Below, one piece after another: positions 2,859 to 44,852 of a stretch of 64,000 nucleotides of DNA. The translations under genes and the position numbers were made by a program. A model generated the notes under the pieces. The model worked only from the letters and a program-made list of their open reading frames with translations. It searched no databases and was not told the DNA's origin. Every line of letters starts with the position of its first letter. Position 1 is the first letter of the stretch. Source of the stretch: an uncultured Thermoleophilaceae bacterium (GTDB lineage Bacteria > Actinomycetota > Thermoleophilia > Solirubrobacterales > Thermoleophilaceae); contig CAWGTC010000001.1 of assembly GCA_963825475.1 (NCBI GenBank), positions 315,742 through 379,741 of the forward strand, given 5' to 3'.

Positions 2859-2933
2859 TCGGCTGTTGACCCTACCCGCGCCGTCCCCGAGGCACGCCTC
2901 AGAGGCCCACGGGGCGCATTCTCAGAATGTGCC

Positions 2934-2939
2934 TAGAAT
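2934..2939 (+). promoter_or_regulatory. Candidate -10 hexamer TAGAAT next to a 13-bp palindrome (CATTCTCAGAATG, 2917-2929) in the divergent spacer
   Basis: This is the only AT-rich patch in the 95-bp spacer between the MBL gene start (2858) and the coiled-coil gene ATG (2954). TAGAAT fits the TAnnnT actinobacterial -10 pattern. Confidence 0.3.
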
Positions 2940-2953
2940 GGTGCCCTTCAAGG

Positions 2954-4852
2954 ATGAAGATTCGCCGAAAGAACAATGAGGGTGTCCAAGCGGGGGACGC
3001 CGTAGAGGCCCAGTCTGACTGGGCCACGCTGGCCGATGTGGCTGGCCAGACGCCGCCAGCCGAGCCGGGCGAACAAGCGCGTCCCGACGCGGCCGAGCCG
3101 CCGCCACCGGCGAGCGGCCCGCCCTCGAGCCCTCAGGTCGAGGAGCTGCTCGGCGCCGAGCGCGAGGCGCAGAACCTCCTCGAGCGCCGCCGCGGCCAGC
3201 TGCGCTCCGCCGTCGCGGCCGAGGGCGAGCGGCGGGTGGCAGAGGCCACGCAGCGATTCGAGGCCGAACGCGCCGAGCTGGAGCGCCAGCTTGCCGAGGT
3301 TCGGGCCGAGGCTGAGCAATGGGCCGCGGGCGTGCGCGAGAGCCACGAGCAGCTGGGTCGCGACCTCGAACGGGAGCGAACGCGCAGCGGTGATCTGGAG
3401 GTCCGGCTCGAGGAGACAAGCGAAGCCCTCGAGCAGGCCACGAACGGGTTGGCCCAGACTCGCGAAGAGCTGCAGGCGGCGCGCGAAGAGCTCAAGCGCG
3501 AGCGCGAAGAGACCCGGGACCGCGCGAAGGACGCGGAGGGCAAGCTCGTGGAGGCGCGCTCGCAGGCGGAGGCCCTGGTGGCTCGCGTGCGCGAGGAACA
3601 CGAGCAGATCGGCGAGGAGCTCGAGCGCGAGCGCACGCGCACCGGTTCCCTCGAGGCCCGCGTCGAGCACGAGCGCCGGGCTCTGGAGATCGCGCGAGGC
3701 GGGCTGGAGCAGGCCAACGGAGAGCTTGAGCAGGTGCGCGCCGAACTGGAGCGCGAGCGCGAGCAGGCTTCGGCACGGGTCGGCGCCGCCGAACGCGAGC
3801 TGGCCGATGTTCGCGCCAAGGCGAAGGAGTGGAGCGCCGGTGTCCGTACGCGGGTCAAGACTGCCGAGAGTGAGCTGACCAAGGCCCAAGAGCAGGCCGA
3901 AGAGCGGGTCGCCGCACTGCGCGCCGGTCATGAGGAGGTGGCCCAGAAGCTCGAGCAGGAGGCTACGCGCCGCACGGAATTGGAGACCCGGCTCGCCCAG
4001 GAGACCCAGGCCGGCGAGCAGGCAGCCGCGGCCCTCGCGCAGGCCACCGCCGAGCTGGAGCAGTCGCGGGACGAGCTGGAGACCCAGCGCCGGCGCTCGC
4101 AGGAGAGCGTGCAGGAGGCCGAGGGCCGAGTGGCGTCGGCGCGCACGCGGGCCGAGGAGCGCGTGGCGGAGGTTCGCCAGAGCCACGAGCAGCTCGGCGA
4201 GCAGCTGGAGCAGGAACGCACGCGCGGTGGCGAGTTGCAAGCCCGGATGCGGCAGGAGAGCCAGGAAGCCGAACAGGCGCGTGCCGAGGTCGAGCAAGCG
4301 CACGCCGAGCTGGCTGAGGCCCGGTCCGTGGCGGCGCACGAGAGCCAGCGCCGGGCAGAGCTCGAAGAGCGTCTGGCGGCCATGGTCGAGCTGGAGGCAG
4401 ACGCCAGCGAGGTGCGCGAGCAGCGCGTGCGCGACCTGGAGAACGCCCTGGCCGAGGCTCGGCGAGCGGCCAAAGCGGCCGGCGTCGAGCTGCGCCCCGT
4501 GCAGGGCGGTCACGAGGGACACGAGCCGAGCGCACCAAGCGCAAGCGCGCCCGGGGATAGCGAGCCCACGGTCATGCGGCCCGTGGACGCTGCGGCCGCG
4601 GTGGCCGCGGCCGAGGCCGACTCCGACGACGCCCGCGTTGTGGTGATGGAGGCCGGACACGTCCGGCAGCGCCGCACCGAGGGGATCTGCTCGGTCTGTC
4701 GCCTCGCACGGCCGGACGCCGACCCCGGTGAGCTCGCCCGCCTCGGCTGGATCGAGCGCGAGCACCTCGACCTGTGTCCTGACTGCCAGGGCGAGGGTTG
4801 GCAGCTCCCCGAGGGAGCGACGGTTCCGATGCGCCGGTTCGCGAGTTCGTGA
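2954..4852 (+). CDS. Coiled-coil protein with C-terminal CxxC...CPDC zinc-ribbon, unknown function (paralogue 1)
   Basis: The start is taken at the ATG giving MKIRRKNNEG, which parallels VRIRRKSGED of the next gene. About 500 aa are E/A/R/Q-rich heptad-like sequence with a recurring module (W.AGVRESHEQLG..LERERTR.G.LE.RL). The C-terminus is CSVCRLARPDADPGELARLGWIEREHLDLCPDCQGEGWQLPEG. Confidence 0.7.
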   Translation: MKIRRKNNEGVQAGDAVEAQSDWATLADVAGQTPPAEPGEQARPDAAEPPPPASGPPSSPQVEELLGAEREAQNLLERRRGQLRSAVAAEGERRVAEATQRFEAERAELERQLAEVRAEAEQWAAGVRESHEQLGRDLERERTRSGDLEVRLEETSEALEQATNGLAQTREELQAAREELKREREETRDRAKDAEGKLVEARSQAEALVARVREEHEQIGEELERERTRTGSLEARVEHERRALEIARGGLEQANGELEQVRAELEREREQASARVGAAERELADVRAKAKEWSAGVRTRVKTAESELTKAQEQAEERVAALRAGHEEVAQKLEQEATRRTELETRLAQETQAGEQAAAALAQATAELEQSRDELETQRRRSQESVQEAEGRVASARTRAEERVAEVRQSHEQLGEQLEQERTRGGELQARMRQESQEAEQARAEVEQAHAELAEARSVAAHESQRRAELEERLAAMVELEADASEVREQRVRDLENALAEARRAAKAAGVELRPVQGGHEGHEPSAPSASAPGDSEPTVMRPVDAAAAVAAAEADSDDARVVVMEAGHVRQRRTEGICSVCRLARPDADPGELARLGWIEREHLDLCPDCQGEGWQLPEGATVPMRRFASS

Positions 4853-5211
4853 GGATCAGGCGAAAGAGCGGCGAGGATTCGCCGGCCGTGCGGCCGGTCG
4901 AGTTCGCCGGCACCGAGGCTGAGGCGTACCCCGATCAGCCCGACGAGGTTTCCGAGCAGGATGGGACTGCGTCGGAGCGTGACGAACTGACGGCGCTCGC
5001 CCAAGCTCAGCGGGAGGCGCACGAGCTGCTCGAGCGCCGCCGCAACGAATTGCACTCCGCCCAGTTGACAGAGGCGCGGCGGCAGCTCGCCGCCGCCGAG
5101 GAGCAGTTCGGGCAGGAGCGAGCCGAGCTGGAGGCCGAGGTGGCGGCGGCTCGGTCGGACGCCGAGGCGTGGGTTGGGAGCGTGCGCGAGAGCCACGAGG
5201 AGCTGGGCCAG

Positions 5212-5877
5212 GAGCTCGAGCGTGCTCGGGCCGAGGCGGAGCAGGCGCGGGGCGAGTTGGAGGCCGAGCGCGTGCGCGCGCAGGAGGCGGAGCAGCAGGC
5301 GGGGGTGGCTCGGTCTGAGGCTGAGGAGTGGGTGGCGAGTGTGCGCGAGACGCACGAGCAGCAGGGCCAGGAGCTGGAGGCGGCGCGCACTCGTTCCGCC
5401 GAGCTGGAGGCCGCCTTCGAGGAGCGCGGGCTGGAGCTCGAGCGTGCTCAGGCTGAGGCGGAGCAGGCACGCGGCGAGCGGGAGGGCCTGCAAGTTCGCG
5501 CCGGGGAGCTGGAGGCCGGCGTCGCGGAGCGCGGGCAGGAGCTCGAGCGTGCTCGGGCTGAGGCGGAGCAGGCGCGGGGCGAGTTGGAGGCCGAGCGCGT
5601 GCGCGCGCAGGAGGCGGAGCAGCAGGCTGAGCAGCAGGCGGGGGTGGCTCGGTCTGAGGCTGAGGAGTGGGTGGCGAGTGTGCGCGAGACGCACGAGCAG
5701 CAGGGCCAGGAGCTGGAGGCGGCGCGCACTCGTTCCGCCGAGCTGGAGGCCGCCTTCGAGGAGCGCGGGCTGGAGCTCGAGCGTGCTCAGGCTGAGGCGG
5801 AGCAGGCACGCGGCGAGCTGGAGGGCCTGCAAGTTCGCGCCGGGGAGCTGGAGGCCGGCGTCGCGGAGCGCGGGCAG
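5212..5877 (+). repeat. Near-identical in-frame tandem repeat, 327 bp + 339 bp, inside coiled-coil gene 2
   Basis: Copy 1 spans 5212-5538 and copy 2 spans 5539-5877. They differ by two substitutions and a 12-bp insertion (AEQQ). More diverged copies follow from 5878. Confidence 0.9.
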
Positions 5878-6712
5878 GAGCTCGAGCGTGCTCAGGCCGA
5901 GGCGGAGCAGGTACGCGCCGAGTCGGAGGCCGCGCAAGCTCGCGTCGGGGAGCTGGAGGCCGCGCTCGAGCAGGTGCGTGGCGAGTTGGAGGGCGAGCGG
6001 GCGCGAGCGCAGGAGGCCGAGCAGCAGGCGGCGTCGGCCCGGTCCGACGCTGAGGAGTGGGTTGCGAGTGTGCGCGAGACCCACGAGCAACAGGGCCAGG
6101 AGCTGGAGGCCGCGCACACTCGCGCCGGGGAGCTGGAGGCCGGCCTCGAGGAGCGCGGGCAGGAGCTCGAGCGAGCTCGAGCAGGCCAGGTCCGAGCTGG
6201 AAGCCGCGCACGGCCAGGCGCAGGCTGAGGTAGAGCGTCTGACCCGGGAGGTCTCGGACGCCAAGTCCGCCGAGGAGCGGGCGCGCAACGAGATCAAGCC
6301 GCGAGCCGCGCGCAAGATCGCCGACGCCCAACAGGCCGCTGAGGAGGCGGGTCGCCAGGCCGACGAGGAGCGCGAACGAGTCGCGGCCCTACAGAGCCAG
6401 GTGGCCGAACTCGAGGGCGAACGCGAGCAGTTGCGCGCGAATGCGCAAGAGCTCGAGGGTCAGGCTGCCGCGGCCCGGTCGGAGGCTGAGGAGTGGGTTG
6501 GGAGTGTGCGTGAGAGCCACGAGCAGCTCGGCCAGGCGCTGGAGACCGAGCGGGCCCGCGTCGGTGAGCTCGAGGCCGGCCTCGAAGAGGCGACTCAGGC
6601 GCAGGAGCAGCTACGTGAGGCCAGCGAGCGCGAGCGGGCCGAGGCCCAAGAGGCCCAGGAGGCCCTGCGAGCCGAAGCAGCGGAGAGAGAGCAGGAGCTC
6701 ACCGCCCAGGCC

Positions 6713-6840
6713 GAAGCTCAAGCCGAGGCGCTGAGGGTAGAAACCGAAGCCCAGGCCGAGGCGCTGAGGGTAGAAACCGAAGCCCAGGCCGAGGCGCTGA
6801 GGGTAGAAACCGAAGCCCAGGCCGAGACGCTGCGTGCGGA
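6713..6840 (+). repeat. 33-bp in-frame tandem repeat (EAQAEALRVET), about 3.8 copies
   Basis: The unit gaagcccaggccgaggcgctgagggtagaaacc starts at 6713, 6746 and 6779, with a partial copy from 6812. Confidence 0.9.
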
Positions 6841-7167
6841 CGCCGAAGCGCAGGCCGGTGAGCTGAGGGCTCAGGCGGAGAGCGAGCTCGCGGAGGCCCA
6901 AGTGGCCGCCGACGCTCGCGCTGGCGAGCTCGAGGAGGCGCTGGCCGAGTCCCGCGCCCGGGCCGACCAAGCCGACCACCAGCGTGCGGAGGTCGAGCAG
7001 CGACTGCGCGCGCTCGTGTCGCTCGAGGCCGACGCCCGCCAGGTGCGCGAGCGGCGAATGAGGCAGCTGGAGCGCGAGCTCGCGGAGGCCAGGAACGCCC
7101 CTGGGCCGGCCGTCGAGGCAAGTGAGGTAGATGCTCCCGCTCCAGCAGCATCACCGGCGCCGCCTGA

Positions 7168-7261
7168 GCCTGAGGCCGCATTCGAGCCGGACCCCGAGGC
7201 CACCTTCGAGCCGAGCCCCGAGGCCACCTTCGAGCCGAGCCCCGAGGTCGCCTCCGAGCCG
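7168..7261 (+). repeat. 24-bp in-frame tandem repeat (PEATFEPS), about 4 copies, in the linker before the zinc ribbon
   Basis: The unit cccgaggccaccttcgagccgagc occurs at 7192 and 7216, with diverged copies at 7168 and 7240. Confidence 0.85.
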
Positions 7262-7577
7262 CCTCAGGCCGCCGCTGCTCCATCACCTCTGAGCCAGGAG
7301 GCGATGACCCAGGCCCACGACGTGCGCGCCGCAGGGCCGGGGGCGGTGGAAGAGCAGCGCGGCCTCTTCGGCCGGCGCAGGCGGCGGTCAGGCCAAGGCA
7401 GTTGCTCGGTGTGCAACAACCCCGAGCCCAATCTGCCCCCGGGCGAGCTGGCCCTGAGCGGCTGGATCGAGCGCGGGGACGTGAGCCTGTGCCCTGACTG
7501 CCGCACCATCGGCTGGCAGCTCCCCGAAGGCGCCGCCCTGCCTTTCCGGCGTTTGTCCCAGAAGGGCTAGCGAAGCC

Positions 7578-9152: not shown

Positions 9153-10997
9153 GTGATCGCCGGCGGGCTCGGGGCCGGCCACGGTCGGGTCCGAGACCCC
9201 GGCCGGGCCGCCGGACCGGAGGCCACCCATCGCGAGGCCGGAGCGCTGCGGCTGGCTTGGAACGGAGGCGCGGAGGCCCACGAGGCCGATGGCCTGCTCG
9301 TCGTACTCGACGGATTTCTGCTCGGGCCGATGGCCGATCTGGCGAACGTGGCCGAAGCCTGGCGCCGGGCGGGCAATTCGGTGACCGACCAGTTGCAGGG
9401 TGCCTTCACGATCGTGATCTGGGACGGACGCTCGCAGCGTGGCATCGTGGCTTGCGATCACTTCTCCCTCCGCGTCTGCCTCATGCACGGGACCGAGGGC
9501 GGGACGCTGCGCTTCTCGACCCATCTGCCGACGCTTCGGCGCATGCTCGCGAGCGATCCCGGGCCCGAGCCTCAGGTGATCGTGCCGTGGATCGCGCCCC
9601 AGTACCTCCAAGGTCACAAGACCATGCTGGCCGGAGTCGAGCGCGTCGGTGGTGCGCGATTGCTCGAGCTGAGCGCCGGCGGCTGGCGCCGGCGGCGCTA
9701 CTGGCGCCCGACGTGGAACGGCACGCTCGACGCGCCTCGCGCGGAGCTGGCCGCGATGCTTCGCAGCGAGCTGGCGCGCGCCGTGGCCCAGCGATTGGCC
9801 CCCCACACCCCAACGGGCACGATCCTCAGCGGCGGGCTGGACTCGTCCGTGGTCCTGGCCACCGCGGCCGCGCTCGAACCGCGCCCCGACCTCAGGGCCT
9901 ACTCGACCGTTTTCCCGGATTGGCCCGCGGCCGACGAGTCGCAGCGAATAGCTGCCACCACCGGTTTTCTCGACGTGCCCGCCTCACGGTTCGTAGTACG
10001 TCCCCAAGGTGCCTTGCGCATGGCCCTCGAGCAGCTGCGCGACTCGGGAACGGTTCCCGGCGGACCCGGCGGACTGGTCGAGCGTCCGGGCGTCCGGCAG
10101 GCTGCCGCCGATGGCGTGCACGTGCTATTCGACGGACAGGGGGGCGACGAGGTCTTCGGCAGCTCCCCGTACCTCCTTGCGGATCGCCTGCGCCGAGGCA
10201 ACGTCCGGGGCGCGGTCCGGCTGCTTCGGCGGACGGTGCCCTACCTGCGGCGGCGAACTTCCCAGGCTGCCGCCTGGACTCTCTTGCGCGACTTCGGTCT
10301 GAGCCCGGCGCTGCCTCGGCGGGCTCGCGTGGCGGTCGCGCGCCGGGGCGTCCGTGGCCATCACGCGCCCGAATGGCTCACCGCCGCCTCCGGCCGCACG
10401 CTTTCGGACGTGCACCAGCCGTGGCCTTGGATCGACGACGAGTCCGATGTGCCGCGGTGGTGGGCGTATCAGTCCTACCTGCTCACGGATCACGTAGAAG
10501 GCAGCGGCTTGGGTGAGCACATGTGGGAGCGCGCGGCTCCGTTCGGGATGCGCTCCGCTGCCCCGCTCTTCGATCTGGGCCTCGTGCAGCTCGTGCTGCG
10601 GATGCCTCCCGAAGCGACGTGGCAGCGGGTCGACCGCTCGCTGGCACGGGAGGCGGTGGCCGGCCGGCTCCCGGAGGCCGTGCGCAACAACCGCAGAAAG
10701 GCGAACATCGGGCCCTTCTACCTCGATCTGCTGACCGGGCCCGACAACACGATCGTGCGGGAGCTGCTTCTGGATCCGCGCGCGCGGGTACGCGGGTTCG
10801 TCGATCCCGTGTGGCTGGACCGGAGCCTCGCCCGCCTGCCGACGAGGGCGGACGCCGACTGGCTCATGTGGACCACCGTGGCCTGGCGTCTGGCGATGGC
10901 CGAGTGCTGGCTGCGCTGGCTCGAGGAGCCTGGCTTTCCCGAGTCCATGCTCGACCGGCCGGACCTCCCCGAGGTCTCCGCCCGCCCGGCGACCTAG
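9153..10997 (+). CDS. Lasso peptide cyclase (asparagine synthetase homologue, C protein)
   Basis: 614 aa with an Asn_synthase PP-loop (GTILSGGLDSSVV). The N-terminus (VIAGGLGAG) lacks the Cys2 nucleophile of true AsnB. Precursor, PqqD, B2 and ABC genes are adjacent. Confidence 0.85.
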   Translation: MIAGGLGAGHGRVRDPGRAAGPEATHREAGALRLAWNGGAEAHEADGLLVVLDGFLLGPMADLANVAEAWRRAGNSVTDQLQGAFTIVIWDGRSQRGIVACDHFSLRVCLMHGTEGGTLRFSTHLPTLRRMLASDPGPEPQVIVPWIAPQYLQGHKTMLAGVERVGGARLLELSAGGWRRRRYWRPTWNGTLDAPRAELAAMLRSELARAVAQRLAPHTPTGTILSGGLDSSVVLATAAALEPRPDLRAYSTVFPDWPAADESQRIAATTGFLDVPASRFVVRPQGALRMALEQLRDSGTVPGGPGGLVERPGVRQAAADGVHVLFDGQGGDEVFGSSPYLLADRLRRGNVRGAVRLLRRTVPYLRRRTSQAAAWTLLRDFGLSPALPRRARVAVARRGVRGHHAPEWLTAASGRTLSDVHQPWPWIDDESDVPRWWAYQSYLLTDHVEGSGLGEHMWERAAPFGMRSAAPLFDLGLVQLVLRMPPEATWQRVDRSLAREAVAGRLPEAVRNNRRKANIGPFYLDLLTGPDNTIVRELLLDPRARVRGFVDPVWLDRSLARLPTRADADWLMWTTVAWRLAMAECWLRWLEEPGFPESMLDRPDLPEVSARPAT

Positions 10998-11079
10998 CAC
11001 TTCTTCCAGTCTTGTCCCCGGGTCGGGTGGTGCGTAAAGTCCGGCCGACTGCAAGAGCAGCCTGACGAAACGGAGTCTC

Positions 11080-11247
11080 ATGGAGCAGGGAACACCTCAG
11101 TACGACTTGCCGCGGCTGGTGGACTACGGCCGGCTGCAGGATGTCACCGCCAACAACGGCCAGCCCGTGTTCGTCGACGTCCCGCAGGGCACGCCGGTTC
11201 CGCCGCCCAGCGGCGACATCGTCGGCGACGACGACAACCTGAGCTAG
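11080..11247 (+). CDS. Lasso peptide precursor A1 (55 aa)
   Basis: Not in the ORF track because it is under 60 aa. Sequence: MEQGTPQYDLPRLVDYGRLQDVTANNGQPVFVDVPQGTPVPPPSGDIVGDDDNLS. The leader fits YxxPxLxxxG with Thr at -2. The predicted core is NNGQPVFVD..., with Asp9 as ring acceptor and a C-terminal Ser. GGAG lies 6-9 nt upstream. Confidence 0.8.
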   Translation: MEQGTPQYDLPRLVDYGRLQDVTANNGQPVFVDVPQGTPVPPPSGDIVGDDDNLS

Positions 11248-11250
11248 ATC

Positions 11251-11415
11251 GTGGAACGCGAGACCATCAAGTACGACACGTCGCCCTCCATCACCGATTA
11301 CGGCGATCTGGCGGCGATCACCGCCAACAACAATATCCCGCAGTTCGTCGACGTCCCGCAGGGCACGCCGGTCGGCCAGGGCCCGATCGTCGGCGACGAC
11401 GACAACCTGAGCTAG
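11251..11415 (+). CDS. Lasso peptide precursor A2 (54 aa)
   Basis: The GTG start lies 3 nt after the A1 stop. Sequence: VERETIKYDTSPSITDYGDLAAITANNNIPQFVDVPQGTPVGQGPIVGDDDNLS. The TA|NN...FVD junction and the GDDDNLS end match A1. Confidence 0.75.
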   Translation: MERETIKYDTSPSITDYGDLAAITANNNIPQFVDVPQGTPVGQGPIVGDDDNLS

Positions 11416-11428
11416 CGCCGGTCACCTG

Positions 11429-11448
11429 CTCCACGCCGTCGCGTGGAG
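11429..11448 (+). terminator. Stem-loop immediately after the precursor genes (8-bp stem ctccacgc/gcgtggag, 4-nt loop)
   Basis: Perfect inverted repeat 14 nt after the A2 stop. There is no U-tract, so it is more likely an attenuator or stabiliser than a full terminator. Confidence 0.35.
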
Positions 11449-11692
11449 GTCTAGGCTGCGCCCGTGCCTGCAGGGACGGACGGGGTCGAGATATGGGTGC
11501 TGCTCGAAGCCGAGGACCCTGCGCGGGCGACCGTGCTCGAGACCCTGTCGGCATCGCCAGGGCTCGCGCCCGTGGTTCGTCCATGGCCGGCCCGCGAGCG
11601 AGTGCGGCCGGCCGGCGGCCTTCCTCTGCCGCTATCCAACCTCTGAGCAGCCGACCGCTCTCAAGCGGCGTCTGGGTGGCGCCCGGGCGATC

Positions 11693-12088
11693 GTGCTCGC
11701 CGCGTCCGGCATCCGGCGAGACGACGCGCGCGCAGCAATCGCCCAGGGCGCCGATGCCGTGCTGCTCGAGGACGACGCGCCGGCCGTAGTGCTGCCGGCG
11801 GTGCATGCGGCGCTGGCGGGGCTCGTGGTGCTCTCGGCGGCCCTCGGGCCGGCGGTGGCGCGCTCCCCGCTGACGCCGCGGGAGAAGCAGGTGCTGGCGC
11901 TGGTCGTGATGGGCTACTCGAATCGGGAGATCGCCGATCAGCTGGTGGTCGCGGAGAGCACGGTCAAGAGCCACCTCTTCTCCGCTTTCCGCCGGCTCGG
12001 CGTGCGTTCACGCAGCGAGGCCGTGGCCCTGATCACCGACCCGGGACGCGGCCTGGGAAGCGGGATTTTGACCATCGCACGCGAGTAG
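11693..12088 (+). CDS. LuxR/NarL-type HTH regulator; an upstream receiver-like part may be split by a frameshift
   Basis: The C-terminal HTH is LTPREKQVLALVVMGYSNREIADQLVVAESTVKSHLFSAFRRLGVRSRSEAVALI. Frame 1 from GTG 11464 reads VEIWVLLEAEDPARATVLETLSASPGLAPVV (receiver beta1-alpha1-beta2-like), but it stops at 11646. Confidence 0.65.
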   Translation: MLAASGIRRDDARAAIAQGADAVLLEDDAPAVVLPAVHAALAGLVVLSAALGPAVARSPLTPREKQVLALVVMGYSNREIADQLVVAESTVKSHLFSAFRRLGVRSRSEAVALITDPGRGLGSGILTIARE

Positions 12089-12110
12089 GGGCGGCAGGTA
12101 TCCTCCCCAC

Positions 12111-12413
12111 GTGGGACCGACCAGTGTTGACCAGAGCACCCCCCGGCGGGTCACGATTCCCCAGCATGTCGTCTTTCGCAAGTTCGTGGACGAGACGGTG
12201 GTCCTCAACCTCGAATCCGGGTGCTACCACGGGCTCAATCCGATAGCCGGGTACATGCTCGAGCTGCTTGGTGAGATGGGCGATGTGAGTGCCGTGATCG
12301 AGCGGATCGTCGACGAGACCGGGGTCGCGGAGGACAAGGTGGGCGTCGACCTGCGTGCGCTCTGCGCCTCCCTCGCCGAGCGGGGTCTGATCGAGGTCGA
12401 TGCAGAGAGCTGA
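12111..12413 (+). CDS. PqqD-family RiPP recognition element (lasso B1)
   Basis: 100 aa: ...IPQHVVFRKFVDETVVLNLESGCYHGLNPIAGYMLELLGEMGDVSAVIERIVDETGVAEDKVGVDLRALCASLAERGLIEV. This is the classic PqqD pattern. Confidence 0.85.
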   Translation: MGPTSVDQSTPRRVTIPQHVVFRKFVDETVVLNLESGCYHGLNPIAGYMLELLGEMGDVSAVIERIVDETGVAEDKVGVDLRALCASLAERGLIEVDAES

Positions 12414-13353
12414 GCCCGGCGGCGACGCCGCGCTCGGCCTGCGCTTCACCGGAGACCCTCTTCCCGGCCTCGTGGCCGGAGTAGAGGGCGACCTGCCGTC
12501 GGTAGCCGTGGAGCGCGCCGGCGAGGCCGTGATCGACGAACGCTGGGCCGAGGCGACAGCTCCTGAAGTGATCTTCGCCCGCCCCAATCGTGACGGGACT
12601 CCCTTCCTTCGCATCGAGGCCGACGACTCTGCGGGGTACCGGGTGTCGGCCCGCGGCTACGGCACGCACCTGATCAGCGCGGACGGCAGTGACTGCGTCT
12701 CGAGCCTCCCGGGCGGACCGGCCTGGCGTGGACTGCGGCTGCTGGCCAGCCAGACCATTCCGCTCCTTACCACGCTCCGTGGCCGCGAGGTGATGCACGC
12801 GGCCGGGGCCGTGGTAGGTCAGCGCCTGATCGGCCTCGTAGCCCCATCCGGGACCGGGAAGAGCTCGACGGCGTGCAACCTGATCGCGCACGGCGGAAGC
12901 TTCTTCGCCGACGACGTGCTCGCCCTCGATCTCGTGGACGGCCGCGTTCGCGCCCATCCCGGCCCGCGACTAGTGAGCGTGCATCCGCGCGATCTCGGAG
13001 CGATTCCCGAAGGGCCCCGCGCGAGGATCGGCACACGGCTGGACCAGAGCAACAAGGTGCACCTCGAGCCGGCGGGCTTCCCCCGGGCGCTGCCGCTGCA
13101 CGCCATGGTCTTCCTCGACCGCCGTCCGGAGACGGCGACCACGACCATCTCGGCGCTCGACAACGTGGCCCCGCGACTGCTCGGCAATGCTTTCGTGTCC
13201 TACTTCGACGCTCCCGAGAGGCTGGCGCGGCAGCTCGAGATCGCGGGCACGCTGGCGGAGACCATCCCGCTGGCCAGCCTCGACATCGCGGCCGGGGACG
13301 GCGCCTCCACGGTCGCGCGCCGGGTCGGCGAATGGGTGGAGACCCTCCCGTGA
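12400..13353 (+). CDS. HPr kinase-like P-loop kinase (lasso precursor C-terminal Ser kinase type)
   Basis: 317 aa. GLVAPSGTGKSSTACNLIAHGGSFFADDVLAL resembles the HprK C-terminal domain (GxSGxGKS...ADD). It overlaps B1 by 14 nt and B2 by 4 nt. Confidence 0.8.
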   Translation: MQRAEPGGDAALGLRFTGDPLPGLVAGVEGDLPSVAVERAGEAVIDERWAEATAPEVIFARPNRDGTPFLRIEADDSAGYRVSARGYGTHLISADGSDCVSSLPGGPAWRGLRLLASQTIPLLTTLRGREVMHAAGAVVGQRLIGLVAPSGTGKSSTACNLIAHGGSFFADDVLALDLVDGRVRAHPGPRLVSVHPRDLGAIPEGPRARIGTRLDQSNKVHLEPAGFPRALPLHAMVFLDRRPETATTTISALDNVAPRLLGNAFVSYFDAPERLARQLEIAGTLAETIPLASLDIAAGDGASTVARRVGEWVETLP

Positions 13354-13787
13354 GCGGCGCGGCGCGTGCCGGCCTCGATCCGCTCCTGCGCGCGTCACCT
13401 CTGCCCCCGGTGGTTCGTGCCCGGATCGGCGCCGAGATTATCGCGACCTATGCCGAGGTCAGGTGGCGGATGCTCCGTGGCGATATCCGGGACGTCGTGG
13501 CCACGTTGCGCGGGGAGACCGACGATGTGCACGACCTCTCCGATGCGCGCCGGATGGGCATCCGTCTCGGACGGGCGGTGCGCCGGACGCTCGATCCGCT
13601 TCCGTTCGACTCGCGTTGTTTGATGCGCTCGCTCGTGCTGCAGCGCATGCTCGCGCGGCGGGGAGTCGTCTGCCGGCTCGTGATCGGCGTCCGCCCGGGG
13701 GAGACCCTCGAGGCCCATGCCTGGATCGAGCACGGGGGCCTGCCGTTGCTGCCCACGCTCGGCTATGAGCCACTCACGGTCCTCTGA
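13350..13787 (+). CDS. Lasso peptide leader peptidase B2 (transglutaminase-like Cys protease)
   Basis: GTG 13350 overlaps the kinase stop (GTGA). Sequence: ...FDSRCLMRSLVLQRMLARRGVVCRLVIGVRPGETLEAHAWIEHGGLPLLP. The Cys...His spacing is typical of McjB-like B2 proteins. This is the tail of track ORF 12873..13787. Confidence 0.85.
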   Translation: MSGAARAGLDPLLRASPLPPVVRARIGAEIIATYAEVRWRMLRGDIRDVVATLRGETDDVHDLSDARRMGIRLGRAVRRTLDPLPFDSRCLMRSLVLQRMLARRGVVCRLVIGVRPGETLEAHAWIEHGGLPLLPTLGYEPLTVL

Positions 13788-13788
13788 G

Positions 13789-15684
13789 TCAGCGGTATGC
13801 GGCGGCCTGCAGGTCGAACAGCTCGGCGTAGCGGCCGCCGAGCGCCACGAGCTGCTCGTGTGAGCCCTCCTCGACGATCGCGCCTTCGTGCAGGACGTAT
13901 ATGCGGTCGGCCGATCTGACGGTGGAGAAGCGGTGGGAGATCAGCAGCACGGAGCGTCCGCGGGCCAGGGCCTGGACGTACTCGAACAGCTCGTGCTCCG
14001 AGCGGGCGTCGAGCGACGCTGTCGGCTCGTCGAGCACCAGCAGGCGAGCCTCCCTGAAGAAGGCGCGCGCGAGCGCGATGCGCTGCCATTGGCCCAGCGA
14101 CAGGTCATACCCGCCCGTGAACTCCTTGCCCAGAAGCGTCTCGTAGCCCTGGGGCAGGCGTTCGAGATAGTCGTGGGCACCGGCCTGCTTCGCCGCCTCG
14201 ATGATCGCCTGCGTGTCCTCGACCGCCTCCGCTCTGCCGAACCCGATGTTCTCCCGCGCGGTGAGCTGATAGCGCACGAAATCTTGGAAGATCACGCCTA
14301 CGTGGCGCCTGAGCGCGCGCCGGTCGAGCGTGCGGATGTCGATGCCGTCCCACAGCACCCTGCCTTCCGTGGGCGTGAACAGCGCACCGAGCAGCTTGGC
14401 GAGCGTCGTCTTGCCTGAGCCGTTCTCCCCGACGAGGGCTACCACCTCCCCTGCGCCGATCCGCAACGACACGCCGTTCAGCGCCTTGTACTCGGCGTTG
14501 GGATAGGCGAAGTGCACGTTCTCCACGACGAGCTCGCTGAACGGCGCCACCTCCTCGAGGGGGGCGGAGGTGCGCTCGGAGGTCGCCGCCGGCGCCCGAG
14601 CGAGGAAGCGATGGAGGTCGCCAAGGAACAGGCTTGACTCGAAGAGCCGGCTGATGCCCTTGAACACCTGCTCGATGCGCGATCCCAGGAGGCGAATCGC
14701 GAGCACCGCGGCCCCTGCCTCCGCCAGACCGATCCGGTCCGAGAGCACGAACGAGATCAGCAGCGCGAACGCGGCGCTCGTGACCACCACTGTCGCGAGC
14801 GTCCCGGCCAGGGCAAGAAGCAGCCGGCGCCGGACATGGACGCGCAGGTCACGCAGGTAGTCCAGGTAGCTGCGATCCCAGCGGCGGCGAAGGATCTGGC
14901 CTAGGCCGAAGGCCCGCAGCTCCTTCGCCTCCTCACGTCCGATCAGCGTCTGGACGAGGTAGAAGCGCAACCGGGTGCCCGGGGTCTGCTCGACGTTGAA
15001 GCCGAACTCGATCTTCCCCGTCGCCCGGGAGAGGAGCCACAGCGGCAGCGCCGACGCGAACAGGATGGGCACCACGAGCGGCTCGATGATGACCAGGGCC
15101 ACGGTGAGCCCGACCGCCCCGAGGATGCCCCCAATTGTCGCGATCAGGCCCTGTGAAAGGGTCAGAGGCTGAAGCAGAGCGTTGGTCTGGACCCGCTGGA
15201 GGTCGTCGAAGAACTCGGGCGACTCGAAGGTCTCCAGGTCCACCGCCGTGGTCACGGAGAGCATGGAGTCGAGCGTCGAGCGTTGCACGTGCTCGCCGAG
15301 CATTCGCTGGGCAAGGGTCTGGAAGGAGCCGGCGAAGCTGCCGAGCGCGCCCGCGGCCACGAGGCCGATCAGCGGGGGCAGAGCATCGAGCACGGCGCCG
15401 TCCGACTGCGTGGTCTCGAGAATGGCCTCGAGCGCCAGCTTGCCGAGAAGGACTTGGACGCCGAGCAGCACGGCGACGAAGATCTGCGCCACGGCGCAGA
15501 GATCGAACAGCCGGGGATTCGCCTCGCGGGCCAGCTTCACCGCCGAGCGTGCGATACCCGGCAGGCTGCGAACCGTCCTGGGCCTCCCCTTCCCCGACAG
15601 GTAGTACTGCTGGCGGTCGAAGGGCTTCTGGTCGCTCTCTCCCTCCGCGCCTGACGGCGGCGGCTTCCCACTGTCGTCAGGCAT
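13789..15684 (-). CDS. ABC transporter, fused permease/ATPase (lasso exporter D type)
   Basis: Walker A is GENGSGKTT, the signature is LSLGQWQR, Walker B is LLVLDEPT, and 6 TM segments lie N-terminal. The start is trimmed to ATG 15684 (MPDDSGKPP...), which avoids overlap with the divergent gene at 15737. Confidence 0.85.
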   Translation of the reverse strand: MPDDSGKPPPSGAEGESDQKPFDRQQYYLSGKGRPRTVRSLPGIARSAVKLAREANPRLFDLCAVAQIFVAVLLGVQVLLGKLALEAILETTQSDGAVLDALPPLIGLVAAGALGSFAGSFQTLAQRMLGEHVQRSTLDSMLSVTTAVDLETFESPEFFDDLQRVQTNALLQPLTLSQGLIATIGGILGAVGLTVALVIIEPLVVPILFASALPLWLLSRATGKIEFGFNVEQTPGTRLRFYLVQTLIGREEAKELRAFGLGQILRRRWDRSYLDYLRDLRVHVRRRLLLALAGTLATVVVTSAAFALLISFVLSDRIGLAEAGAAVLAIRLLGSRIEQVFKGISRLFESSLFLGDLHRFLARAPAATSERTSAPLEEVAPFSELVVENVHFAYPNAEYKALNGVSLRIGAGEVVALVGENGSGKTTLAKLLGALFTPTEGRVLWDGIDIRTLDRRALRRHVGVIFQDFVRYQLTARENIGFGRAEAVEDTQAIIEAAKQAGAHDYLERLPQGYETLLGKEFTGGYDLSLGQWQRIALARAFFREARLLVLDEPTASLDARSEHELFEYVQALARGRSVLLISHRFSTVRSADRIYVLHEGAIVEEGSHEQLVALGGRYAELFDLQAAAYR

Positions 15685-15736
15685 CGAGGAGAGGATACGT
15701 CGAGGAGTCAGGAAGCTGAATGTAAGGTGCGCTCCC

Positions 15737-16486
15737 GTGAGCGCGCTGCATGTCGTCATCCTCGCTGCCGGCAAAGGCAGCCGCCTGGGCGCGCTCGGGG
15801 CCCAGAAGCCCAAGTGGCTGCTCGACGTCGGGGACCGGACTATCGCCGACCACCAGCTCGAGGGCCTGGAACGGGCGTCCGGCACGGTCGCGTCGGTGAG
15901 GGTGGTCACAGGTCACGCCCGCGAGGCCATCGACAGGTTTCTCGAGGCCGGCCGCGATGTCCAGGTGGTCCACAACATCGAGTACGCGCGCCTCAACAAC
16001 TGGTACTCGGTGCTGCTGGCGCTGCGGTCCATCACCGACCCTGATCCGCGCGTGGCGATCATCAACGGCGACCTCTTCGCGCGCGCGGACTGGATAGCCA
16101 AGTTTCTGGTCGACAGCACCGGCACTTCCTCCGAGTCGCTGATCGCCGTGGATACCCAGCGGCCCGTGACCGACGAGTCGATGAAGGTGGCCATGGACGG
16201 AGCCTCTCGACTGAGCGCGATCGGCAAGGAAGGCATCGTGAACCCCGTGGGGGAATACGTGGGCATGCTGATGGCGGCGGGATCGGTGCTAGAGGACTTC
16301 CGCACCGCACTGGAACGCTTCGAGCGCCAACCGGAGTCCGCGAATGAGTGGTACGAGAGCGCCGTGGGCGTCTCCGCCGCTGCGGGCACGGATTGGACGG
16401 TGTGGCCGACTCCCGACAGCCACTGGGTCGAGATCGACGACGATGCCGACCATTCGATCGCGCTGCGGATGAGCGAAAGTCTCTGA
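15737..16486 (+). CDS. MobA/LicC-like NTP-transferase (putative cytidylyltransferase)
   Basis: 249 aa with an N-terminal VVILAAGKGSRLG nucleotide-binding loop and an NNWYSVLLA motif, as seen in LicC/IPCT-like cytidylyltransferases. Confidence 0.7.
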   Translation: MSALHVVILAAGKGSRLGALGAQKPKWLLDVGDRTIADHQLEGLERASGTVASVRVVTGHAREAIDRFLEAGRDVQVVHNIEYARLNNWYSVLLALRSITDPDPRVAIINGDLFARADWIAKFLVDSTGTSSESLIAVDTQRPVTDESMKVAMDGASRLSAIGKEGIVNPVGEYVGMLMAAGSVLEDFRTALERFERQPESANEWYESAVGVSAAAGTDWTVWPTPDSHWVEIDDDADHSIALRMSESL

Positions 16487-42044: not shown

Positions 42045-43244
42045 TCATCCCCGTCCGCGCGCGATGACACTGGCCGGCGCCCACGCGTAACGGCCGACAA
42101 CCCTGATCGCGTGGCTGAGCCGGGCTGAAGTCATACGGGTTCGCGAGCCGCCGCGCAGCTCGGGCCGGCGCTCAAGCAGCACCTGGTCCGGGGGGAAGAT
42201 TCGGCGGCGGGCAAACGCACGGAGACCCCCTGAGGGGCTGAGGAGGCCGTCGACAAGCGAAATCTCAGCGCGGACCTGTTGGCGCGATCCCTCGCGCCAC
42301 GGATTGGCGAGTCGCACGGCTGCTCGCTCGCGACGGGCGAGCGGCCGGGCGGGGGCGATCAGAGAGCCGCGGGCAAGCCCCGCCATGGTTTCGGCATGCT
42401 CGGCGGCGGCGGCAAGCGCAGGGGCCAGTTCAGGATGACGCCCGGCGACCGTTCGGACCCCGGCCGCAGTCTCCCCTGGTCGACCCAGCGACGCCCACCA
42501 GGCCGCGACGTCGACCGTCTGCCGCAGCCCCGCAAAGCCGTCCCGCGCGAGGAACAACAGCAGGAAGGACAGTTCGTCCGTGGGGAGCAGCCGCCGCGAA
42601 CCGTCTTCGTTGATGGTTGCGCGGTCCAGAGCCGCCTGAGCGAAAGTCGACTCATACCAATGCACGCGCCAGTGCAGCTCGAGCGGGGGCAGGTCCGGGT
42701 GGTCCAGCACGCGGTGGAGCTCGGGCAGGCCGTCGATAGGTCGCGACCAGTCTGGCTCTGTCCAGCCGAGCCCTCCGGCGAGATCGACTGCTCGATCGAG
42801 CCCAGCGCCGGGAACCAGCAGATCGATGTCGGAAGACTGGCGCGCCCCGAAGTTGCCGTAGATGGAGTCGGCAAGCGCCGTCCCCTTGAGTGCAACTACC
42901 GCAAGCCCGTCCGCCTCGAGCGTGCGCGCCAGCCGCCCCGTAAGCGCGTGCTGGATCATCCCGCGGTGGCGAGCGATCATTCGGGCGCCGCCGAGCCACT
43001 CAGCGAGTGGCTCGGTCAGCTCGATAGCCGGATCGTCGAGAAGTCGCCCGCCTAGCGTCGTGATCATCCGCTGGGCCGCAAGCAGTCCGAGCACGCGTTC
43101 CAAATCGGCGACCGCCGCCAGCCTGTGGACCTCAGCAACCCGGTCGGGTGTCGGCTGAGCGACCGCGCGTATGAGGGCCACCACCAGCGCGTGCTCGGGT
43201 GTCACGGCCGCAGCGTACGCGCTCAGGAGGGCTGCGCGTCGCAA
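42045..43244 (-). CDS. NTP_transf_5-type uncharacterised nucleotidyltransferase
   Basis: 399 aa: ...VVALKGTALADSIYGNFGARQSSDIDLLVPGAGLDRAVDL..., a Pol-beta-like G[SN]...D.D signature as in the family co-occurring with HprK-like kinases. TTG start. Confidence 0.65.
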   Translation of the reverse strand: MRRAALLSAYAAAVTPEHALVVALIRAVAQPTPDRVAEVHRLAAVADLERVLGLLAAQRMITTLGGRLLDDPAIELTEPLAEWLGGARMIARHRGMIQHALTGRLARTLEADGLAVVALKGTALADSIYGNFGARQSSDIDLLVPGAGLDRAVDLAGGLGWTEPDWSRPIDGLPELHRVLDHPDLPPLELHWRVHWYESTFAQAALDRATINEDGSRRLLPTDELSFLLLFLARDGFAGLRQTVDVAAWWASLGRPGETAAGVRTVAGRHPELAPALAAAAEHAETMAGLARGSLIAPARPLARRERAAVRLANPWREGSRQQVRAEISLVDGLLSPSGGLRAFARRRIFPPDQVLLERRPELRGGSRTRMTSARLSHAIRVVGRYAWAPASVIARGRG

Positions 43245-43343
43245 TTCGGCTCCGGCGGCGGGATGACGAGGCCTACGTGACTGTCCGAACCTGCGCCGCT
43301 AGCGGGCCGTTGGGTGTACCGTGGGCTGCACAGGGAGCCCCGG

Positions 43344-43874
43344 ATGTCCTCTATCGACAACACGCCAGCTGCTCGGAAGGTGGTCTACGACCAGCCTCAG
43401 GTCCGAGACTACGGGTCCCTGGTCACGCTCACGGCGGATTTCGATGTGCACTTTGTCGGTTCAGTCGCGAAGATTGTGACGCTCGCCACCGTGAGTTCCC
43501 CGCTGGCCGTTGGCGGCGGCGCTACTGGCCCGGGCGGTGGTGGTGGCAGTGCGGGCAGCCTCGCGCCATCGAATCTGACTCCGGACACCGGAGGAGTGCT
43601 CTCCGACATCGCGCAAGCCGATGGCGTTCCCGAGGGCGGGACCGAAACTCCGGCCACGATTGACAACGGCACGGGGGTGCTTGCAGACGGCCCGGCTGGG
43701 GGCGGGGAGGCGGCCGGATCGGGCTCGATCGGCGGCGGCGCGGGCGCGGGCGGCGGCGGTGAGGGCGGGAGGCTCCCGTTCACCGGCTATGCGGCTGCGA
43801 CTGTTGCCGCGCTCGGAGCGGCCTTCACCGGCGCCGGCGTAGCGGTGCGCGCCCTGCTGCGCCGCCGCAGCTAG
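43344..43874 (+). CDS. Gly-rich LPXTG (LPFTG) surface-anchor protein with a lasso-leader-like N-terminus
   Basis: GGGAG lies 7 nt upstream of the ATG. Sequence: MSSIDNTPAARKVVYDQPQVRDYGSLVTLTADFDVHFVG..., then Gly-rich low complexity, then GGRLPFTGYAAATVAALGAAFTGAGVAVRALLRRRS*. The N-terminal 31 aa align with the leaders of A1 and A2. There is no classical Sec signal. Confidence 0.7.
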   Translation: MSSIDNTPAARKVVYDQPQVRDYGSLVTLTADFDVHFVGSVAKIVTLATVSSPLAVGGGATGPGGGGGSAGSLAPSNLTPDTGGVLSDIAQADGVPEGGTETPATIDNGTGVLADGPAGGGEAAGSGSIGGGAGAGGGGEGGRLPFTGYAAATVAALGAAFTGAGVAVRALLRRRS

Positions 43875-43892
43875 CAAGACCGGCAGGCGAGC

Positions 43893-44852
43893 GTGACGCG
43901 CGGTGAGTCGCCCGAGTGGCGGGGCAGTGCGTTCGGGCTGAGTCTCTCCGGCGCCTTCGTTGCGCCCGGGTTGGCAGGTGAGACGCGTTCGTCGAGTTCA
44001 GCGTTCGCGACCGAGCTGGCGTTGGTTGCTCGGGGAGATCTCGGCGAGGGATGGGCTCCGGTCGAGGTCGAGCTGCTCTACGAGCAGGTGCTTCCCAATG
44101 GCAGATTTGCGATCCGCCGCCACCCGGAGCGTGGCTACCGACTGGAGCACACGTACTACGGACAGTTCTGGGTCGCGACGGACGGGGCCCGAATCTCGTG
44201 TGCTCCCGAGGATTTGCCGAACTGGCTGTGGCAGCGCTTCCTGGTTGGCCAGGTGCTGCCGCTGGCGTCACTGTTGCAGGAGTACGAGGTGCTTCATGGC
44301 AGCGCAGCTGCGATCGACGGGTCTGCCGTGCTGGTGATGGGCGCCAGCGGGGCCGGGAAATCTTCCGTGTGCCTGCACCTGGTGGCCGGCGGCGCGACGT
44401 TCCTCACCGACGACGTGGCTGCCCTGGAGCTACGCGACGGGGCCGTCCTGACGCATCCGGGTCCGGGGTTGGCGAGCCTCGACGAAGACGAGCTCGCACG
44501 CCTGCCACCCGAGCAGACGGGAGCCTGGGAACGGCTCGGGGTTTCCGACGGGGAGGTCCGACTCATGGTGACCGGCGCCGGACACCAGGCTCTTCCGGTC
44601 GCCGCGATCTACCTTCTCACCCATCGCCCCGAAGCTCGCCGGCTCGAGATCGTCGCTACGGCGGCGGCTTGGCCCGAGGCTCTGCTGGGCGGCACGTTCA
44701 ATGCCTACCTGCGGGATGCGGGGCGTCTGGTGCGCCAGCTGGAGGTGGCGGGTCGTCTCGCGGAGACAGTGCCCTTGCGAGAGGTGACGGTGCCCGAGGG
44801 TGTGGGGGCGGGCGCTGTGGCCGACGCCATCGCCTCCTCGTTCAGGCCCTGA
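43893..44852 (+). CDS. HPr kinase-like P-loop kinase, second copy
   Basis: 319 aa. LVMGASGAGKSSVCLHLVAGGATFLTDDVAALELRDGAVLTHPGPGLASL aligns with 12400-13353 (GLVAPSGTGKSSTACNLIAHGGSFFADDVLALDLVDGRVRAHPGPRLVSV). Confidence 0.8.
   Translation: MTRGESPEWRGSAFGLSLSGAFVAPGLAGETRSSSSAFATELALVARGDLGEGWAPVEVELLYEQVLPNGRFAIRRHPERGYRLEHTYYGQFWVATDGARISCAPEDLPNWLWQRFLVGQVLPLASLLQEYEVLHGSAAAIDGSAVLVMGASGAGKSSVCLHLVAGGATFLTDDVAALELRDGAVLTHPGPGLASLDEDELARLPPEQTGAWERLGVSDGEVRLMVTGAGHQALPVAAIYLLTHRPEARRLEIVATAAAWPEALLGGTFNAYLRDAGRLVRQLEVAGRLAETVPLREVTVPEGVGAGAVADAIASSFRP

Follow-up and report, generated by a model that had tools for sequence, protein, structure and literature searches.

Tandem genes for predicted Asn1-Asp9 lasso peptides in a kinase-encoding cluster of a Thermoleophilaceae bacterium

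Two precursor genes in a split-B lasso peptide cluster

Two short tandem open reading frames (ORFs), here named A1 and A2, occupy positions 11080 to 11415 of a 64,000-nucleotide (nt) stretch of DNA (the window; contig CAWGTC010000001.1 of assembly GCA_963825475.1, positions 315,742 to 379,741, forward strand) from an uncultured Thermoleophilaceae bacterium. Judged from gene content, they lie in a complete lasso peptide cluster of the split-B type that also encodes a kinase. We propose, with a probability of about 0.8, that both are genuine lasso precursors of a kinase-tailored split-B pathway in which the leader would be cut off after Thr-Ala, Asn1 would be joined to Asp9 in a ring, and the C-terminal Ser would be phosphorylated.

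A1 (11080 to 11247, plus strand) starts with ATG 83 nt past the stop codon of the cyclase gene C, on the same strand, and is preceded by a ribosome-binding site (RBS), GGAG, at 11072 to 11075. It encodes 55 amino acids (aa), with a leader of residues 1 to 24 (ending DYGRLQDVTA) and a 31-aa core, NNGQPVFVDVPQGTPVPPPSGDIVGDDDNLS, for which an Asn1-Asp9 macrolactam and Ser31 as phospho-acceptor are predicted. A2 (11251 to 11415, plus strand, 54 aa) has a leader of residues 1 to 25 (ending DYGDLAAITA) and a predicted 29-aa core, NNNIPQFVDVPQGTPVGQGPIVGDDDNLS, with a C-terminal Ser. The sequence between the genes is TAG-atc, and the A2 GTG start codon begins 3 nt past the A1 TAG, as an earlier reading made from the sequence alone (the sequence-only reading) had also noted. 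The two tandem ORFs of that reading are present, its translations and predicted cores match ours letter for letter, and both tails do end in GDDDNLS. It had described the ORFs as unannotated; they were absent from the ORF track available to it, but a public protein collection holds both as unnamed gene calls, P0001 and P0113, the latter being the A2 peptide.

A1 and A2 are real coding genes and not chance ORFs, because they show codon-position GC asymmetry, have homologues in genomes and metagenomes, and have accumulated proportionally fewer nonsynonymous (pN) than synonymous (pS) differences. GC contents at codon positions 1, 2, and 3 in the called frame were 0.75/0.39/0.91 for A1 and 0.61/0.40/0.92 for A2 in a genome of ~70% GC, while an antisense ORF overlapping the precursors (11318 to 11974; 0.84/0.65/0.69) lacked gene-like asymmetry. 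Comparison with orthologues gave pN 0.099 and pS 0.319 for A1 and pN 0.090 and pS 0.296 for A2 (pN/pS of ~0.3 for both). The idea that A1 and A2 are chance open frames in GC-rich DNA or functionless remnants could draw on their short length, on the non-ATG start of A2, and on Pfam and NCBIfam scans of the two peptides, which returned no family at the default threshold; a scan to E ≤ 10 gave a sub-threshold match of A1 residues 11 to 28 to NCBIfam lasso_leader_L3 (E of 0.014). That idea is effectively refuted by the strong codon-position asymmetry, by pN below pS, by 21 distinct homologous cores with invariant motifs, all of them beside lasso genes, and by a conserved promoter-like element and RBS.

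The short precursor genes adjoin, and are co-oriented with, genes for a cyclase, a PqqD-like RRE (recognition element for peptides that are made by the ribosome and modified after translation), and a transglutaminase-fold peptidase, all on the plus strand. C (9153 to 10997 as its longest ORF, although translation may begin further downstream) encodes a predicted Asn-synthetase-like macrolactam synthetase, with matches to Pfam Asn_synthase (6e-37) and, below the curated cutoff, to NCBIfam NF033535, lasso isopeptide cyclase (1.2e-32). A search of solved structures with C matched only generic Asn-synthetase-fold enzymes. The predicted leader-binding chaperone B1 (12111 to 12413, plus strand) matched Pfam PqqD (3e-13), NCBIfam lasso_PqqD_Strm below its curated cutoff (1.9e-9), and TbiB1 in the Protein Data Bank (5V1U/5V1V; E of 2e-5). 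The end of B1 is overlapped by the start of K (12400 to 13353, plus strand), a predicted HprK-like lasso peptide kinase that matched Hpr_kinase_C (1e-3) and HprK_rel_A (6e-6), both below curated cutoffs. B2 (13332 to 13787, plus strand), the predicted leader peptidase, matched NCBIfam lasso_biosyn_B2 (NF033537; 9.5e-19) above the cutoff and Transglut_core3 (3e-19). Its start is either ATG at 13332 or GTG at 13350, the latter overlapping the K stop codon as GTGA. D (13789 to 15909 as its longest ORF, minus strand; translation probably begins further downstream) is convergent with B2 and encodes a predicted ABC exporter (ABC_tran, 1.4e-34).

Between A2 and B1 lies a gene for a LuxR/NarL-type regulator (11464 to 12088, plus strand; GerE helix-turn-helix, 1.8e-18). 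In the window it is split into 11464 to 11646 and 11693 to 12088 by a frameshift near 11602 to 11606. The orthologue at L001, a Joint Genome Institute (JGI) metagenome contig, is intact (204 aa), and that of L004, a Thermoleophilaceae metagenome-assembled genome (MAG), is in a single frame; the window frameshift could be a real inactivation or an assembly error in a GC-rich run. The gene order C-A-LuxR-B1-K-B2 with D reversed recurs in both L001 and L004, where D has the same position and orientation and 68 to 69% identity. L004 is the nearest named relative in the fetched set, its cluster proteins being 60 to 73% identical to those of the window. A tblastn search of the rest of the window found no second cyclase, B1, or B2. 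An NTP_transferase gene beside D (15737 to 16486) was considered as a PsmN-like tailoring enzyme and as a cluster member and was rejected on both counts: it belongs to a different Pfam family (NTP_transf_3/NTP_transferase, not of the PF14907 type), and it had no tblastn counterpart in 59 related loci.

Conservation of leader and core points to an Asn1-Asp9 ring

A search of 5.8 billion proteins returned only six called precursor relatives. Since small ORFs are seldom called as proteins, DNA loci were searched instead: 59 genome loci gathered by kinase alignment and 10 metagenome loci gathered by precursor alignment were translated in six frames and searched with a precursor profile. This yielded 23 sequences with 21 distinct cores from genomes and metagenomes, mostly of Thermoleophilia-type Actinomycetota. 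The 21-core family with its invariant motifs and the full cluster context together uphold the earlier assignment of both ORFs as lasso precursors.

Core position 1 was Asn in 20 of the 21 cores and Ser, in the same column, in the remaining one, a paralogue at locus L065; position 2 was Asn or Asp. P5, V8, D9, and V10-P11-Q12-G13-T14 were present in all 21 cores and F7 in 20. Every core ended in Ser as part of an invariant C-terminal [LM]-S, with tails ending ..NLS in 9 cores (both window peptides included) and ..[EQGP]MS in 12. The extreme conservation of the ring and post-ring motif N-N-x-x-P-x-F-V-D-V-P-Q-G-T-P, seen in over 20 sequences from soil, suggests a specific molecular target that is itself conserved. 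In the leader, P-14, D-10, G-8, L-6, T-2, and A-1 were invariant (21/21) and Y-17 was present in 20/21. A1 carries the register Y(-17)xxP(-14)xL(-12)x3G(-8)x5T(-2)x exactly, and YxxPxLx3Gx5Tx is the leader register of characterized lasso peptides such as fusilassin. In A2, P-14, I-12, G-8, and T-2 are in register and Tyr stands at -18 through a one-residue insertion (YDTSP), which makes the window A2 the only one of the 21 members with leader Tyr at that position. A Y(-17)/P(-14)/L(-12) leader motif is also known from the Bsf system, and Tyr(-17) is a key RRE contact in characterized systems (PMC10368454).

Cleavage after T-A and an Asn1-Asp9 ring are well supported by these alignments, because the core residues are invariant, Asn occupies position 1, and the leader register is canonical. 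The sequence-only reading had proposed a cut after T-A with Thr at -2, Asn as the first core residue, and Asp9 as the ring acceptor, and each of these proposals is matched by the family: T-2/A-1 is found in 21/21 members, with the A1 leader in the register Y-17/P-14/L-12/G-8/T-2; Asn heads 20 of 21 cores; and Asp9 is the sole acidic residue at positions 7 to 9 and is invariant (21/21). A small residue (usually Gly, also Ala, Ser, or Cys) is typical, although not strictly defining, at lasso position 1, and the position is Asn here. The claim that Asn1 is uncommon among characterized lasso peptides agrees with the searchable literature but overstated the novelty. Asn1 is rare yet precedented in predictions, because a large-scale analysis is reported to have seen every residue except Pro at core position 1 and some cyclases are reported to accept almost any residue (PMC13632552).

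Kinase-linked lasso precursors at loci L005 to L062 (Thermoleophilia, Acidimicrobiia, and other MAGs) include several more uncharacterized core families behind one leader type, among them GG..R.G.DQLxPN...CFS, SKGPRQADFLGGRD.GGGGYS, [AST]KPGI[YF]FDFPGSAEG...S, and a Cys-containing ACxG...D. These cores open with G, A, S, V, T, or N, and 11/52 end in Pro.

The kinase retains its catalytic residues

An alignment of 21 kinases with 27 to 63% identity to the window K showed H133, G151, G153, K154, D171, and D172 to be invariant and S150 nearly so. In BsfK, the motif is H-x14-G-x2-G-x-G-K-S-x15-D-D, and mutagenesis showed that the H, K, S, and D-D residues matter (PMC10368454). The motif spacing of K is the same as that of BsfK (H148...G166-x-G168-K169-S170...D186-D187), with the first motif Gly replaced by Ala and the second by Ser150, and a K family profile matched HPr kinase structures at 4e-6. 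By alignment, K thus retains all of the catalytic residues that mutagenesis showed to matter in lasso kinases.

PadeK, ThcoK, SyanK, and PsmK phosphorylate the C-terminal Ser of the linear precursor (PMC8498205; PMC6993621). A C-terminal Ser was found in 21/21 cores of the Asn1 family and in 34/52 cores across all kinase-linked families. The invariant terminal Ser fits kinase activity at that residue. The Ser-terminated tails singled out by the sequence-only reading are therefore both a family trait and accompanied by a downstream, cluster-encoded HprK-like kinase with intact catalytic residues.

P0008, a close kinase relative (72% identity, 414 aa, from a 49.8-kb ENA contig), carries a PqqD domain. 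This suggests a natural B1-K fusion, which would be consistent with functional coupling of RRE and kinase.

The A1/A2 duplication is old

The sequence-only reading had taken near-identical 3′ halves of the two genes (11171 to 11247 versus 11348 to 11415) as a sign of recent tandem duplication. The identity is real, but its coordinates were a few bases off, and it consists of two blocks around an unrelated segment: 11170 to 11199 versus 11344 to 11373 (29/30 nt identical) and 11218 to 11247 versus 11386 to 11415 (30/30 nt identical), with a nonhomologous loop segment of 18 nt in A1 and 12 nt in A2 between them. Shared codons of A1 and A2 were identical in 18 of 19 cases, with 10.2 expected from window codon usage (P of ~6e-5).

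The inference of recency did not survive comparison with other loci. In both L002 and L003, as in the window, an A1-type gene (NNG.PVFVD) precedes an A2-type gene (NN[NA]IPQFVD); in the 5′ half, the window paralogues are more diverged from each other (pS 0.55, pN 0.40) than are orthologues (pS 0.30 to 0.46, pN 0.14 to 0.17); and precursors again stand in tandem, two or three together, in L063 to L068. By these sequence comparisons, the duplication is older than the split between these genomes. In the 3′ half, synonymous divergence was low (0.06 to 0.16) in all window/L002 comparisons, even between nonorthologous genes of different genomes, and strong constraint and/or occasional gene conversion therefore explains the excess of identical 3′ codons; the 1 to 3 differences per comparison are too few to separate the two.

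The A2 coding sequence is under purifying selection. In L002 and L003 its orthologues use an ATG located 4 nt past the A1 stop, and the start/stop geometry fits translational coupling by termination-reinitiation. The earlier statement that A2 has no visible RBS was roughly right, although GAG at -10 to -8 is a possible weak Shine-Dalgarno (SD) sequence.

Alternative readings

Several points weigh against the reading of A1 and A2 as precursors of Asn1-Asp9 lassos with a C-terminal phospho-Ser. All of the chemistry is predicted from the genes. Among the cluster enzymes, B2 alone matches a lasso-specific model above its curated cutoff, and the matches of C, B1, and K to lasso- or kinase-specific models all fall below theirs; the regulator frameshift means that the cluster may be silent or deregulated in this strain; and no characterized lasso peptide with Asn1 was found in the searchable literature. 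Genuine precursors might also be cut two residues later, after T-A-N-N/D, such that residue 3 would become position 1 of a 7-residue x-x-P-x-F-V-D ring. Residue 3 is Gly, Ala, or Ser, the classical first residues, in 17/21 cores, a 7-membered ring to Asp is permitted for lasso peptides, and within the Asn1 family the shifted boundary keeps Asp at position 7, so the ring-size rule allows a ring from residue 3 to Asp9. We nevertheless regard the later cut as very unlikely. It would move Thr from its near-universal -2 to -4 and lose the Y-17/P-14/L-12/G-8 register, which is exact with the T-A boundary; residue 3 is Asn in 4 cores, so an odd first residue would persist; and position 1 (N20/S1) is far more conserved than position 3. 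In sister clusters the same leader precedes very different cores (with a slash at the boundary, TA/A...D9-VPKGSP...FS, TA/VVGGGFSD8-VPQGSP...CFS, TA/G...D9...FYS, TA/SKGPRQAD8...GYS, and TQ/TKPGIYFD8...S). With the T-x boundary, Asp or Glu falls at core positions 7 to 9 in 49/52 short cores of kinase-linked clusters; with the boundary shifted by +2 it does so in 37/52, and the 15/52 same-leader sister cores left with no acceptor at these positions include all Asp8 families. A further reading accepts A1 and takes A2 as a poorly translated or poorly processed copy heading to decay, with only A1 productive in this genome. In its favor are a GTG start with only GAG as SD where orthologues use ATG, the displacement of the leader Tyr from -17, the position of the key RRE contact elsewhere (PMC10368454), to -18, and damage to the neighboring regulator gene. 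The A2 core and tail are intact, however, with one residue of difference from the L002 orthologue core, pN is 0.09 against a pS of 0.30 relative to the L002 A2, GC3 is 0.92, the start/stop spacing suits coupling, and P-14, I-12, G-8, and T-2 all remain in register. We regard an unproductive A2 as unlikely in this strain.

The remaining points against the proposal concern the kinase site and the tail. BsfK phosphorylates Ser3 and not the C terminus (PMC10368454), and for this reason the site modified by K is not readable from homology alone; we infer by analogy that it is probably the C-terminal Ser. The NLS-type tails, which include both window peptides, have Ile, Leu, and Gln as their largest residues and lack aromatic residues, Arg, Lys, His, and Met. 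The plug candidates of the sequence-only reading do not fill this gap: Phe7 and Val8 are both ring residues, while plugs must sit in the tail, and only a few A1-type genes encode the Pro-rich loop, which the family as a whole does not conserve. With no bulky tail residue, an unmodified peptide is doubtful as a stably threaded 9-membered-ring lasso. The products might accordingly be branched-cyclic and unthreaded, or lassos locked wholly by a C-terminal phospho, polyphospho, or glycosyl-phospho group and not by a conventional plug. The invariant C-terminal [LM]-S is compatible with such a lock, and pseudomycoidin, with its X1-Asp9 ring and C-terminal Ser, is unthreaded without its kinase and nucleotidyltransferase and forms a stable lasso with L21F (PMC6993621). 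The argument proceeds by analogy, however; ring residues Pro5, Phe7, and Val8 may narrow the lumen, the conserved tail segment P-[IVT]-[VIQ]-G-[DS]-[DE] could itself act as a lock, and the sister-subfamily tails (..DPFPEMS) do contain Phe, Tyr, or His and Met. We hold unthreaded or purely phospho-locked products to be a tentative possibility. A bolder scheme, which we consider somewhat unlikely as a whole, would have the Thermoleophilia-type family make Asn1-Asp9 lassos in tandem A1/A2(/A3) sets with no conventional plug and with phospho-Ser as the steric lock, perhaps extended in trans by a PF14907 nucleotidyltransferase gene product encoded ~30 kb away. If a phospho-lock did operate, the modification would be an obligatory structural element of the lasso, made with a cyclase naturally specialized for a polar, amide-bearing first residue.

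Putative expression signals

A conserved noncoding element, CACTTCTT(C/T)CAGTCTTG (10998 to 11040, plus strand), immediately follows the C stop codon. It begins with the 17-mer CACTTCTTCCAGTCTTG at 10998 to 11014, which is single copy in the window, and contains TTGTCC at 11012 to 11017 followed, after a 17-nt spacer, by a -10-like TAAAGT at 11035 to 11040. Of 12 loci, 10 keep the 17-mer almost unchanged, with TAnnnT at the same distance, while the flanking coding DNA has diverged; the element is kept at equivalent positions in L001 to L004 and L063 to L067, loci whose proteins are only 50 to 90% identical. In L065 it apparently occurs twice, the first copy having 2 mismatches. A scan of 10900 to 12200 for generic sigma-70 promoters and intrinsic terminators called nothing, the element being below the sigma-70 threshold, so the proposal that it is probably the precursor promoter and/or a regulator site derives from cross-locus conservation. 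Transcription from such a promoter would be predicted to start a few nt past 11040. Within it, CACTTCTTTCAGTCTTG is possibly a site for the LuxR-type protein.

Just past the A2 stop codon, folding predicted a GC-rich stem-loop, CUCCACGC-CGUC-GCGUGGAG (11429 to 11448, plus strand), with no U-tract. The 53-nt stretch containing it folded at -25.8 kcal/mol (z = -1.9), and hairpins at the same position in L001, L003, and L004 (z of -1 to -3) are conserved in structure and not in sequence. This weak to moderate evidence makes the stem-loop a candidate attenuator or mRNA-stabilizing hairpin that could set the ratio of precursor to enzyme transcript.

Proposed pathway

Genes, conservation, motifs, cluster composition, and the catalytic residues of the kinase were all observed; the sequence in which the steps occur, the phosphorylation, the bond that closes the ring, and tail threading are proposed by analogy with paeninodin, pseudomycoidin, and fusilassin-type systems. 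A dedicated promoter just past the cyclase gene would drive A1-A2, with A2 translated by coupling to A1 termination. B1 would bind the leader through Y(-17)xxP(-14)x[LIV](-12), and, while the precursor is still linear, K would place a phosphate on the hydroxyl of its invariant C-terminal Ser. B2 would then cut after Thr(-2)-Ala(-1) and free Asn1, C would adenylate the Asp9 side chain and join it to the Asn1 alpha-amine to give a 9-residue macrolactam with the acidic tail threaded, and the ABC transporter D would export the product. The predicted monoisotopic mass of the A1 product is 3127.473 without phosphate and 3207.440 with a single one; for the A2 product the corresponding values are 2987.426 and 3067.392.

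Other loci in the window and its relatives

A second kinase locus, separate from the lasso cluster, lies at 42045 to 44852. It comprises a PF14907 "uncharacterised nucleotidyltransferase" gene (42045 to 43244, minus strand; 8.7e-28) ~30 kb from the lasso cluster, a gene for a 186-aa protein (43314 to 43874, plus strand), and an HprK-like paralogue (43893 to 44852) that is 35% identical to the cluster kinase K (BLASTP, 1e-40). The 186-aa protein begins with a lasso-type leader (..YDQPQVRDYGSLVTLTA/DFDV..), continues with a long Gly/Ala/Ser-rich region, and has at its end an LPFTG sortase signal followed by hydrophobic residues and RRRS. Such a leader on a cell wall-anchored protein is an odd combination. 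It is recurrent and not a one-off, because proteins with a lasso leader, a long low-complexity region, and LPFTG are encoded directly upstream of kinase homologues in other Actinomycetota MAGs (L011 at 5411 to 6034, L019, where the ORF runs off the contig end, L014, L016, and L021). Searches within 6 kb of these genes in L011, L014, L016, L019, and L021 detected neither C nor B1 nor B2. In the Thermoleophilia lasso clusters of L008, L015, L032, L033, and L036, a PF14907-type homologue 39 to 48% identical to 42045 to 43244 lies inside the cluster beside the kinase, as in pseudomycoidin.

Two long plus-strand ORFs (2927 to 4852 and ~4798 to 7570) specify coiled-coil-like proteins that are rich in Glu, Ala, Arg, and Gln and highly repetitive, their internal repeats being almost the same. 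The repeat ORFs (2927 to 7570) share similar Cys-containing C termini (..CSVC..PDC..GWQLPEGA), with strong GC and AT skew alongside.

Comparison with known lasso peptide systems

Reviews describe kinase-bearing lasso clusters in Firmicutes and Proteobacteria (PMC8498205; PMC10368454). A literature search on lasso peptides or lasso kinase clusters in Thermoleophilia, Solirubrobacter, or Conexibacter found no relevant paper. If expressed, the A1 and A2 products would be the first characterized lasso peptides with Asn1, the first from the deep-branching and rarely cultured Thermoleophilia, and the first kinase-tailored lasso peptides from Actinomycetota. C would provide lasso engineering with a natural cyclase suited to a polar first residue, and the plug-less acidic tail would offer a clean test of C-terminal phosphorylation as a steric lock. 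The finding extends the known lasso scheme and leaves the understanding of lasso biosynthesis unchanged.

The closest parallels are two Firmicutes systems. The paeninodin system (Paenibacillus dendritiformis; PadeK/ThcoK) shares with the window a split B1/B2 cluster, an HprK-like kinase, and a Ser-ended precursor; Ser is phosphorylated on the linear precursor, and a 9-residue X1-Asp9 ring is combined with an acidic tail, as predicted here (PMC8498205; PMC6993621). Paeninodin comes from Firmicutes and has Ala1, whereas the window cluster comes from a high-GC, Thermoleophilia-type actinobacterium and has Asn1. The window also differs in having its precursors 3′ of C, a LuxR gene between A and B1, and two precursors. 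No similarity between the precursor sequences was detected, PadeA and PadeK not being among the sequences compared, and K resembles HprK models only weakly. Pseudomycoidin, from the psm cluster of Bacillus pseudomycoides, combines an Ala1-Asp9 ring with a C-terminal Ser to which PsmK adds one to three phosphates; its tail, like those of the window peptides, has no bulky plug, and its authors proposed that bulky C-terminal modifications hold the lasso (PMC6993621). The psm cluster includes a nucleotidyltransferase, PsmN, that glycosylates the phosphate, and the window cluster has none adjacent. We take PsmN to belong to the PF14907 family.

Other systems share single features. BsfA/BsfK (Bradymonas sediminis) and SyanK-type proteobacterial systems have HprK-like kinases with the same catalytic motif as K, and B1 assists phosphorylation; the Bsf system has leader Ile at -2 and is phosphorylated at Ser3, whereas Thr(-2) and the C-terminal Ser are invariant in the window family (PMC10368454). 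Palassoptides A1/A2 from oral Actinomyces are likewise actinobacterial, with two precursors and a noncanonical position 1 (Phe1, Glu1); PalC tolerates all residues except Pro at that position, and the antibacterial activity of the two peptides is combination dependent. They differ in having an 8-residue ring, no kinase, and unrelated sequences, and Asn1 was seen there only among engineered variants, not as a natural first residue (PMC13632552). Fusilassin/fuscanodin and TbiB1-type actinobacterial systems have split B1/B2 proteins as here, the window B1 being homologous to TbiB1, but they have no kinase, Trp or Gly at position 1, and cores that differ from those in the window. By these comparisons, A1 and A2 very probably represent a new, uncharacterized precursor family of the known paeninodin/pseudomycoidin-like class. 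The gene content of the cluster, the leader motif and Thr-2, Asp9, the kinase motif, and the terminal Ser all place them there, and among the class features that can be read in silico the exception is the usual small residue at the head of the core.

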